A DNA stretch of 4,863 nucleotides. Source: a virus. Lineage: Duplodnaviria; Heunggongvirae; Uroviricota; Caudoviricetes. Position numbers: made by a program. Location of the stretch: IMG/VR virus record IMGVR_UViG_2778261453_000001, positions 1 through 4,863 of that record. One strand, 5' to 3'. Shown in pieces: positions 1-3,000 of this stretch (position 1 is the first letter of the stretch; the number at the start of each line of letters is the position of its first letter).

Positions 1-3000
1 ATTTCGCCGTCTGCCTCCGCAATGGCCACCGCCACATCCAGCACATCTTCCGCTTCACGCGTATCGTGTTTCACATCCTCAATCTCGCGTAACGCGGCAC
101 GACGACCAATTTTAAAATTGGTATCCAGCTGACCGATAATAGTTGCGCTAATCGCATTAATTTCCGAGGTAAACGCAGACAACGCAGGCTGATTACGTAA
201 GACCTGTTCGATCTTCGCTTTCTCGGATGCCTCGCATTCACCATCTGCATAGGCCACCAGGTATGCAGCGTTAATCACCGCCTGTGCCAGATCGCGTTTC
301 TCAAACTTTTTAATTTCCGCTGCCGCTCTGCGGGTTTTCTTTTTGAAGATTCCAAACATCGTGACGTTCCTTTGGGTGGGTGAGCCAACGCCCGGGAGCG
401 ATCTGCCCACAGAGAAAGTCACACTGACCACTCCGTAAGCTCACCCCCGAAAGGCTCTGTGGTTGATATGCGCCGGGCGTGGCGCAGATACAAAAAAGGC
501 CCGCCGAAGCGAGCCTGGAAAATAAGTGTGGCGCGTTGTAGTGGAGTCGAACCACTGACCGATTGCTTAGAAGGCAATTGCTCTGTCCGGCTGAGCTAAC
601 AACGCAGAATACCGATAATGGACCGCCATCGGGGACCCGCCCCCGCACCAACAACCCTGTTATGGTGTCGTCTGCTCTTCCTGATAAGCTAATGGCGGTT
701 TGTGATGGTGGCCCTTGCTGGATTTGAACCAGCGACCTGGCGATTATGAGTCGCTCGCTCTCACCACTGAGCTAAAGGGCCGGGCGCAGGATAATAACGG
801 TACGTAACTAATTCTGCAATATCATCCGTTCTGACTGACTACATTCTGAACTTCCCTGACCGTCTGCTCAAAACGCCCGCTCTCCAGCTCAACGCCAATT
901 GCACGACGCCCCAGCGCCATTGCTGCTTTGACGCTACGGACATAAAAAAGCCAGCCACTGGGGGAGGCTGGCAAACTCGTAGAGCAAAATGCTGTTACGC
1001 AAACTTCGTTACAGGGTTATCCTGCAATACTTAAAATATACAATATTTAGAAAACTAATAGTGCTATATGCGATTTTTAAGATTTTGTTATTAATTACGG
1101 TCGCACCTTCCTTTCTGTGTACTTTCCGTATAGCTCACAGGATTCTGGGTACAAAAAAACCCGCGCATCGGCGGGTTCGACTGCGTGGCAATGTAACCAC
1201 TCTTATCATGATATGCAGATTTTTACGATCGTAAACTATTTTTTCGCTGATAAAATACAGAGGTTCTCCCTCCCGGCAATTCACGCTCAACATACCGATC
1301 CATCTCAAGCCTCACTCCCAGCATCATCAGCATGCCTTCAACAATCCCCTCCGCTTTGTGAAGGCGTTTACCTATACAGGTGTCAGAGCACCCATGTTTC
1401 CGTGCCAACGCCATGAACGTCTCCCCCAACACGTAATAATCAACCAGCAAGTCATGCAGATCGCGATTGTTCCGGTAAAGGCGGGCTATGCACCCGCATA
1501 TAATCATCGCGTCATCGTCACAACACTGTGGACGTGATTTTACTTTTTCGGGGATCAGTCCCTTAAATCCGGCAGCAATGGGCGACCATGTAACATCCTC
1601 ATAGTTATTTGCCGCCCATGCACCCCAGCGCTCAAGAACCTGCCGGATATCACGCATCAGTATCTTTACCCCATCCGCGATGAACCATAAGAACACCGTT
1701 GACAATAGCGTGTCTTTTTCCTTCTTTATCGCCAGTGTATTTTCTGACCGTGTTGCGACTACAGTTCAGTATTCTGGCTACCTCGGTCTGATTTTCATAT
1801 GCCTCAACGAGCATGTCAGGAATGGTTTTTACTGTGAACGTCATGCGGCCTCACTTCTGCTGTTTCGCAGGTCTTTAAGTTTCTGCTGATACTTCGCCTT
1901 GATGGCCCTGCACTCTTCGACAGTCCAGCGATGGCGGTTATGGTTTGATTCGATTTCGTCTACTGCTTCCTGCCCGATGCGATTAATCAGTTCGACGCGA
2001 TACGGAACGAGATTTCCGCTTTTGTGCTGGTTGCACACCACGCATTGCTTGTGAATATTGCGTTCATCAAATCGGAGTTGAGGTGCCGCAGCAGTTGTCC
2101 GGTAATGTCCGGCATCCCACTGAGCAGACGTGAGCGTTCCGCACGAGATACATGGTAAGTCGCGGTCTCTTTCTCTGATGAAGGCGTTTACGGCTTGTTG
2201 GGCTTGTTTAATCCAGTAACTGCGGGGCTTTAAGGCGAGTTTTCGAATCTTAATTTTATCTTTCTGTTTCTGCTCCTCTCGTCGTCGTTTCTTCTCTGCT
2301 GTTTTTTCCGCCTTTTCGCGTTCTTTATTTCGTCGTTCGAGCGCTAATTTAGTTCCGTGTTCCGGGCTGCACCACCACTGATTTGAGAATGCCGGGTGAA
2401 ACCATTCCTTACAGATTTTGCATTTCCTTCGCGCTGGTTTAGCCATTAAGCAGCCTCCCCTGTTACTTTAAGCATTCCGTTATCTAGCAGCTTTCTTGTC
2501 AGCCACTGTTGACCACGCCCGGTGATTTTTGTGGTGAACGATATCTGTATTCCGTGATTTGTGTTGACCGCTGTTTCTTTCACTGTGAAATAGCCACGAT
2601 CCATATATTCCTGCATTGGCACATTGCGCCGGGAGCCTGAAGCAATAAGGATTTTGTGATCGCGCATCCACGCAAACAGTTTGTTTGGACCAATACCAAC
2701 AACCTTTGCAAAGTTTCCAATCAAAATTCCGCTGGCCTCGCCAACTCGATCGGCAAACTCAACTTTAGGTGCTGCGAGAGCAAGCTGTTTCTCCAGTTCA
2801 GCCTTCTGGTCTTCAAGGTCGGCCGCAAGGCGCAATGCCTCAGAAAAGGTTTGTGGTATTTTCGCGGTTGCCCCTTCGAGTTCTCGCCAGCGGTCAACAA
2901 GGCGAGCGGTGAATTCCGGCGACAACTGAGCGACGACAATAATGCTGTCTCGCTTACCTTGTTCGCCTTCGAATACATACACACGAAAACTTTGATTTAA

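Follow-up and report, generated by a model that had tools for sequence, protein, structure and literature searches.

The window analysed here, a 4,863-nucleotide (nt) stretch of the IMG/VR virus record IMGVR_UViG_2778261453_000001 (positions 1 to 4,863), represents the late-regulatory region of a lambdoid prophage and is read here on the minus strand. Judging from sequence comparison, positions 932-822 of this window, between the terminator tR' of the late leader and the tRNA genes, are the 3' remainder of an N6/N4 DNA methyltransferase gene of the beta class: a pseudogene fragment that descends from a member of the class and is itself no functional member. The explanation that best accounts for all the observations, to which we assign a probability of roughly 0.88, is that this dead methylase tail was joined a few nucleotides past tR' in a lineage of the 933W type. 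The argument relies on the following features:

822..932, minus strand: methyltransferase pseudogene remnant, 36 codons (VKAAMALGRRAIGVELESGRFEQTVREVQNVVSQNG) plus a TGA stop (protein and DNA alignments, tblastn, PHROGs)
933..943, minus strand: spacer ATGTCCGTAGC with the putative recombination joint (three-way comparison of the window, a Shiga toxin 1 (Stx1)-converting phage and Stx2_14744; blastn coverage classes)
944..972, minus strand: predicted intrinsic terminator tR' and 3' end of the StxS small RNA (sRNA), with stem GCCAGCC/GGCUGGC, a 9-nt loop and U6
944..1201, minus strand: StxS_L, the 258-nt PR'-to-tR' transcript (257/258 identical to Sakai Sp5; positions agree with PMC7547250)
1157..1178, with T-run to ~1150, minus strand: promoter-proximal terminator-like hairpin plus T7 (terminator scan; 933W record annotation)
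1208..1235, minus strand: late promoter PR', -35 TTTACG, -10 TATCAT (promoter scan; pR' annotated at the equivalent place in the 933W record)
791..819, minus strand: putative tRNA promoter pT, TTGCAG-17-TATTAT (position transferred from the 933W record annotation; sequence read directly)

Identity and extent of the methyltransferase remnant

The minus-strand frame ending at 822 reads ...LPASPSGWLFYVRSVKAAMALGRRAIGVELESGRFEQTVREVQNVVSQNG (= ...SVKAAMALGRRAIGVELESGRFEQTVREVQNVVSQNG), its upstream part crossing the hairpin (972-950) and the T-run (949-944), and protein alignment placed the remnant on V317-G352 of an intact 352-amino acid (aa) enzyme. When a 37-aa query was run by tblastn against 2.3 gigabases of phage DNA, the top matches were 933W and VT2-Sakai, in which the query was identical, and phages of the O104:H4 type (86% identity). 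Matches to intact methylases included the 352-aa enzyme of Stx2_14744 (E = 2e-11, 81% identity), mEp460 (8e-8, 69%), cdtI (1e-7, 66%), orf48 of SfV (5e-7, 67%) and PY54 (60%). At the DNA level, the remnant and the 3' ends of intact genes were 91.9% identical over all 111 nt, with the homology running on into the tRNAs. PHROG methyltransferase families matched residues 14/15-49 of the open reading frame (ORF) with E-values of 5.5e-13, 1.7e-8 and 4.4e-7, always through their C-terminal ends. The original prediction had taken the element for the 3' remnant of an N6/N4-type DNA methyltransferase gene, and the tblastn E-values of 2e-11 to 5e-7, far beyond chance, together with the DNA identity and the PHROG matches, bore this out; its further claim, that no methylase sequence is found 5' of the remnant, was equally borne out. 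The Pfam profile PF01555 gave the remnant 12.1 bits (E = 0.19), below the gathering cut-off of 26.7, at profile positions 196-219 of 221; the intact gene matched the same profile with E = 6.8e-44, its own C-terminus falling on positions 196-219. A PDB sequence search with the 50-aa ORF described below returned only insignificant proteasome matches, the query being too short for such a search.

Two motifs of the enzyme lie outside the retained segment. Motif IV, (D/S)PP(Y/F), is missing, the DPPY of the intact enzyme being at residues 35-38 and the remnant starting at residue 317. The S-adenosylmethionine (AdoMet)-binding motif I, FxGxG, is missing as well: DFFMGSGST occupies residues 308-316 of the intact enzyme and the joint comes immediately after. 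Since both DPPY and FxGxG are absent, the remnant cannot be an enzyme; that the fragment is non-functional altogether is inferred.

Public annotations contain a 50-aa ORF at this place (974-822, minus strand). Its start codon, a TTG at 974-972, falls partly within the tR' stem and partly directly 5' of it, and codons 2-14 come from the hairpin, the U-tract and the spacer, so that the first 14 codons are all terminator and joint spacer, and there is an internal ATG at 920. The idea that this ORF, or a shorter form starting from the ATG at 920, is a real small protein can draw on its annotation as 'putative DNA methylase' or 'hypothetical protein' in several phage records, its grouping among 'putative 50 aa-proteins' (PMC10462455), the existence of its own PHROG (phrog_14488) and a frame that is open in both known alleles. 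We nevertheless find it hardly credible, considering that the TTG start sits in the tR' stem region and is followed by terminator and spacer codons, that all catalytic motifs are missing, that direct reading of the sequence found no Shine-Dalgarno-like sequence 5' of either the TTG or the internal ATG, and that the lysogen transcript stops at 944, inside the ORF. Moreover, the two remnant alleles differ at 7/111 nt, leading to 5 amino-acid changes with no sign of purifying selection, and the Prokaryotic Genome Annotation Pipeline (PGAP) treats the region as a pseudogene: at the equivalent place in F2_81 and EC4115 it annotates a 114-bp pseudogene, 'site-specific DNA-methyltransferase / DNA methylase; incomplete; missing N-terminus'. 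We conclude that the 50-aa ORF is an artefact, a chimera of terminator and pseudogene, and that what GenBank and PHROGs list as a "50-aa putative DNA methylase" should not be taken for a protein.

The joint and its origin

The upstream limit of the remnant was located by blastn of window positions 1230-800 against the phage collection. Among the matches listed (60 of 340), three coverage classes were found: 933W-type phages covered the whole query, Stx1 phages covered 1230-935 and phages with an intact methylase covered 932-800, which in query coordinates is a breakpoint between 1-296 and 299-431. The Stx1 phages (H-19B, the Stx1-converting phage and others) matched 1230-935 at ~95% and then diverged. 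The window follows the Stx1-converting phage through ...TTTTTTATGTCCGTA (935) and the methylase match begins with GTCAAAGCAGC (932), so the position of the joint was resolved to within 2 nt (935|932). The GC at 934-933 was scored as belonging to neither parent; base 933 alone also fits the Stx1 sequence, and the joint could also be accounted for by a crossover between 933 and 932 with a single substitution at 934. There is minimal microhomology at the joint. The joint lies 9-11 nt beyond the tR' U-tract and thus, of the earlier claim that the remnant is fused directly to the terminator, the abutment holds and the direct fusion does not. In the Stx1 phages, the continuation after tR' begins ACATCCTGTG..., and ~220 bp of unrelated sequence separate the hairpin from stx1A, with no remnant and no tRNAs.

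A derivation of the hairpin itself from decayed methylase sequence was considered, given that MAFFT put the tR' T-run (TTTTTTAT) on the D-F-F-M codons of motif I. This candidate was rejected: the hairpin is also present in Stx1 phages, where the DNA beyond it is unrelated, and the match was within the range of shuffled sequences (best ungapped 37-mer, 22 matches; shuffle mean 19.2, maximum 22), as expected by chance.

The original prediction called for relatives that keep an intact methylase between Q and the tRNAs, and such phages do exist. Stx2_14744 has the order Q (126 aa), small ORF, 352-aa methylase, three tRNAs and stx2AB; 1720a-02 shares this Q, small ORF and 352-aa methylase, and has tRNA-homologous DNA and a disrupted stx2A after them; and in Stx2c phages an intact methylase between Q and the tRNAs was matched at the DNA level. 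In SfV, mEp460 and cdtI an intact methylase of 350 aa lies 5' of the lysis genes. A truncated version is found in PhiR49_2, where a clean 1181-bp deletion (Stx2_14744 positions 1137-2317) in an otherwise collinear QO111-type backbone leaves 98 codons. The methyltransferase described for the PA2/PA8 prophages (PMC10810198) was discarded as a relative: it is gp5, an MT-A70 enzyme near the prophage left end, at a different locus. As a separate observation, every intact late-region methylase has upstream of it a small ORF of ~64-76 aa (phrog_331, function unassigned; Stx2_14744 1175-1405 and four other loci), which has weak winged-helix/helix-turn-helix-like Pfam matches and has been called a 'transcriptional regulator' (PMC8456039); the pair resembles a controller-protein-plus-methylase arrangement.

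Upstream of the joint, the window and the intact-methylase loci share a sole block, PR' and the first hairpin (window 1209-1153, Stx2_14744 1029-1085, 84% identity). Neither the 220-nt leader 1152-933 nor the Stx1 sequence following tR' had a counterpart in the intact-methylase loci. Because this leader has no counterpart there, and because Stx1 phages share the left side to the nucleotide, the joining of two modules seems more likely than a deletion in place. In the history that we favour, a Q933-PR'-StxS-tR' unit would have been joined in a 933W-type lineage to codon 317 of a late-region methylase, through an illegitimate (non-homologous) joint shortly beyond the U-tract, with the DPPY and FxGxG motifs being removed. 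An H-19B-like arrangement would represent the native context of the left module, and the right-hand donor would have been a phage with a late-region methylase and a tRNA-cargo module; in many lambdoid phages the intact methylase is the first late gene, between Q/PR' and the tRNA-toxin or lysis genes.

The same outcome would have been produced by an in-place deletion, in which a 933W-type ancestor with an intact methylase 3' of tR' lost the DNA from beyond tR' through codon 316, and PhiR49_2, with 1181 bp lost and 98 codons left, demonstrates that deletions of the methylase do occur at this locus. We consider this history somewhat unlikely, as among the matches listed only the three coverage classes were present and no record combined StxS/tR' with an intact methylase. 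Besides, for a published collection of Stx2a phages the 352-aa form is reported in four non-Q933 prophages only (three with QO111 and one with an unrelated 273-aa Q), the rest having the 50-aa form (PMC10462455), and neither the post-tR' sequence of Stx1 phages nor the leader 1152-933 shares anything with loci of the intact type. The element had originally been described as a deletion scar; the loss of most of the methylase gene stands, while for an in-place deletion there is no supporting shared sequence and module joining is the more likely event.

Some points weigh against the proposed history of a joined, dead methylase tail. The direction of the event (two phages joined, or a deletion in one ancestor) was deduced from a limited set of relatives. 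The remnant frame is open in both alleles, without frameshift or premature stop, although with just 111 nt and a divergence of a few percent this is weak counter-evidence. Finally, the remnant may have a role at the DNA or RNA level, for example as sequence upstream of pT, with which the data are compatible.

Concerning the age of the joint, an 86-nt sequence spanning it was present at at least 80% coverage in 542 of the 5,426 complete E. coli genomes, whereas 346 of the 5,426 had the Stx1-type continuation, and blastn found the joint in 213 records of the phage collection. An identical joint, including the GC dinucleotide, was observed in 933W, Sakai Sp5, Nil3, phiON-2011 (O104:H4) and the non-Stx prophage of F2_81, on backgrounds that differ by ~5% in the StxS leader and by 6% in the remnant. 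An exact 28-mer across the joint gave no match in the GTDB species-representative genomes, and thus no evidence of the joint beyond strains of E. coli, in a weak test with one genome per species and exact matches only. An identical joint on diverged backgrounds points to one old, inherited event, and the proposal that the remnant documents recent remodelling had to be abandoned on account of this divergence and of the 542 E. coli genomes. The joint arose once; inheritance and recombination have since carried it on.

The remnant occurs as two alleles, the 933W type and the O104/F2_81 type. In the latter, the last 59 nt are those of the intact 1720a-02 gene and the 5' part has the bases common to both remnants, a mosaic that indicates a later homologous exchange, with a crossover inside the remnant. 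Under the joining scenario, the remnant would now be only spacer DNA, a neutral 111-nt scar between tR' and pT. Could it instead have been kept for a role at the DNA or RNA level, either as upstream sequence of pT or as a homology patch for swaps of the tRNA-toxin cassette? The -35 element of pT begins 3 nt after the remnant stop codon and the O104-type crossover did take place inside the remnant (3' 59 nt from 1720a-02, 5' part shared between remnants), but the adjoining tRNA genes already offer homology that is both more extensive and better conserved, the RNA fold predicted for the remnant does not stand out (z = -2.0, with 8/200 shuffles folding as well) and a short neutral stretch between two selected elements is expected to persist anyway. 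Retention for such a role therefore appears very unlikely. The O104-type mosaic does hint that the remnant and the adjoining tRNA genes together could form a homology patch for the exchange of tRNA-toxin cassettes between phages of the Q933/StxS type and phages of the QO111/Q21 type that have the intact gene; we regard this as quite unlikely too. If true, such a patch would re-assort stx alleles with different late-control modules.

Late leader, tRNA genes and surrounding regions

The hairpin that precedes the joint has a 7-bp stem (972-966/956-950, 6 G-C pairs) followed by the T-run at 949-944, and folds at -14.5 kcal/mol (z = -3.3). A consensus terminator scan missed it, since the loop limit of the scan was 8 nt and the loop has 9; in the 933W record it is annotated as a possible rho-independent terminator. 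PR' of Stx1 and Stx2a phages is constitutively active, and Term-seq placed the end of its transcript at tR', 258 nt downstream; an RNase E cut (GU|AUU) at +173 yields the stable sRNA StxS_S (Sy et al. 2020, PMC7547250). Over 257 of its 258 nt the StxS segment of the window is identical to that of Sakai Sp5, the experimentally characterised StxS2, and it is ~95% identical to Stx1 phages; an identity of 94% has been reported between StxS of Stx1 and Stx2a phages (PMC7547250). The Sakai coordinates given by Sy et al. disagree with NC_002695.2 by an apparent offset of ~142 nt and, because they are not directly transferable, StxS was identified by its sequence and internal landmarks. The PR' start was placed at ~1201 from its spacing to the -10 TATCAT (1213-1208). 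Counting from this position, the GTATT at 1030-1026 is the RNase E site, with U1029 at +173, and +258 falls on the final T of the tract (944). By sequence comparison, then, the leader is StxS, and the 972-944 hairpin fits the mapped tR' at the StxS 3' end, with the +258 position depending on the presumed start. For the 3' part of StxS the predicted folding energy is -27.5 kcal/mol (z = -3.0). In lysogens, PR' transcription would halt at tR', just 5' of the remnant; after induction, RNA polymerase modified by Q would read across the remnant into the tRNAs and the cargo, of the TerB family here and stx2 elsewhere.

Two further observations were made in the leader. The 1157-1178 hairpin looks canonical, with an 8-bp G+C-rich stem at ~+24 to +52 of the PR' transcript, and is also found, at 84% conservation, in QO111-type phages without the remainder of StxS. 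The transcript has been published as reaching +258 despite this hairpin. Rfam had no family for the 1201-944 leader, where it gave only a sub-threshold RprA match: positions 940-1056 (minus strand, the 3' part of StxS) matched across the full model with 28 bits (gathering score 70, E = 0.32). StxS uses on rpoS the same seed as RprA, DsrA and ArcZ (Sy et al., PMC7547250), and its likeness to RprA might extend beyond the seed.

On the minus strand, the order of elements is Ant-like ORFs, KilAC/Roi, NinG, NinH, Q, PR' and leader, tRNAs and the TerB-family gene. Identity with phage 933W is 95% across 2.8 kb of the window, a stretch that begins at the antirepressor gene, takes in Q and the tRNAs and stops ~50 nt beyond argO. 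The remaining genes are the following:

2446-3174, minus strand: KilAC/Roi antirepressor
1841-2446, minus strand: NinG
1650-1844, minus strand: NinH
1223..1657, minus strand: antiterminator Q, 933W type (PF06530, E = 1e-50; annotation of relatives); 144 aa by PGAP annotation, with a mechanical ORF start at 1705
706..781, minus strand: ileZ tRNA, CAU anticodon (tRNA-Met by ARAGORN, tRNA-Ile in annotated records)
529..605, minus strand: argO, tRNA-Arg (UCU)

A transcription start that drives the tRNAs has been detected between tR' and stx2AB (Sy et al. 2020, PMC7547250). The slot of argN in 933W is filled here (619-699, minus strand) by an 81-nt tRNA-like sequence that has the acceptor, D and T arms of argN and an anticodon-arm segment entirely unlike that of argN and 3 nt longer. 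The predicted fold shows a long arm closed by a 3-nt loop in place of the 7-nt anticodon loop, and neither ARAGORN nor the Rfam tRNA model called the sequence. An identical copy occurs in E. coli F2_81, without a tRNA annotation by PGAP. The sequence may be a degenerate tRNA or something repurposed. The cargo 3' of the tRNAs is a TerB-family gene (1-359, minus strand, running to the window edge; PF05099, E = 3.8e-10), at the place occupied by stx in Stx phages; the corresponding place in strain F2_81 has TerB followed by a DUF3927 gene and a SASA/NanS-p esterase. The TerB locus is thus a non-toxin variant of the late-cargo slot.

At the other end of the window there are two Ant-like ORFs, of 224 aa (3917-3243) and 121 aa (4548-4183), both on the minus strand and associated with C4/isrK-type RNAs. 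Rfam matches at gathering level (sRNA-Xcc1, C4 antisense RNA, isrK and c4 a1/b1 target sites) were found on the minus strand at 3957-4040, 4601-4684, 4710-4786 and 4747-4799; the sRNA-Xcc1 match is directly upstream of the 224-aa ORF and the other three are upstream of the 121-aa one. This arrangement suggests two tandem antirepressor cassettes controlled by c4 in the P1/P7 style. A 114-nt direct repeat (3613-3726 and 4184-4297, 89% identity) spans the segment common to both ORFs, and the 121-aa ORF, which ends at this repeat, looks like a truncated paralogue of the 224-aa ORF.

Comparison with known systems

The remnant is already known: hundreds of RefSeq genomes list it as a pseudogene, and both forms, of 50 aa and of 352 aa, are present in the Stx-phage literature and in PHROGs. 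What the comparison places precisely is a mosaic boundary 9-11 nt 3' of the functional end of the Q-PR'-StxS-tR' unit. A boundary just past tR' accounts for the intact transfer of this unit with different cargos (stx1, stx2, TerB). The late-region methylase is dispensable, because it has been lost independently at least twice, at the 933W-type joint and in PhiR49_2.

The closest system is the methyltransferase pseudogene of 933W-type Stx2a prophages, which has the same sequence (99-100% to 933W, Sakai Sp5 and Nil3), the same joint and the same place between tR' and ileZ; the feature itself is no different, whereas in the window a TerB-family cargo replaces stx2 and the argN slot is altered. 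Compared with the intact lambdoid methylase of Stx2_14744, the last 36 residues are alike (81% amino-acid and 92% nucleotide identity) and the place relative to Q and the tRNAs is the same, but residues 1-316 and the upstream small ORF of phrog_331 are absent. The StxS/tR' system of Stx1 and Stx2a phages (PMC7547250) is the neighbour of the remnant, recognised here from its sequence, and the adjoining hairpin fits the terminator mapped there. Finally, the truncated 'DNA adenine methylase' of PhiR49_2 (an annotated coding sequence of 92 aa) likewise preserves the 3' end of this gene at the same place, but it arose through an independent, clean internal deletion in a QO111-type backbone and has kept 98 codons, including motif I.

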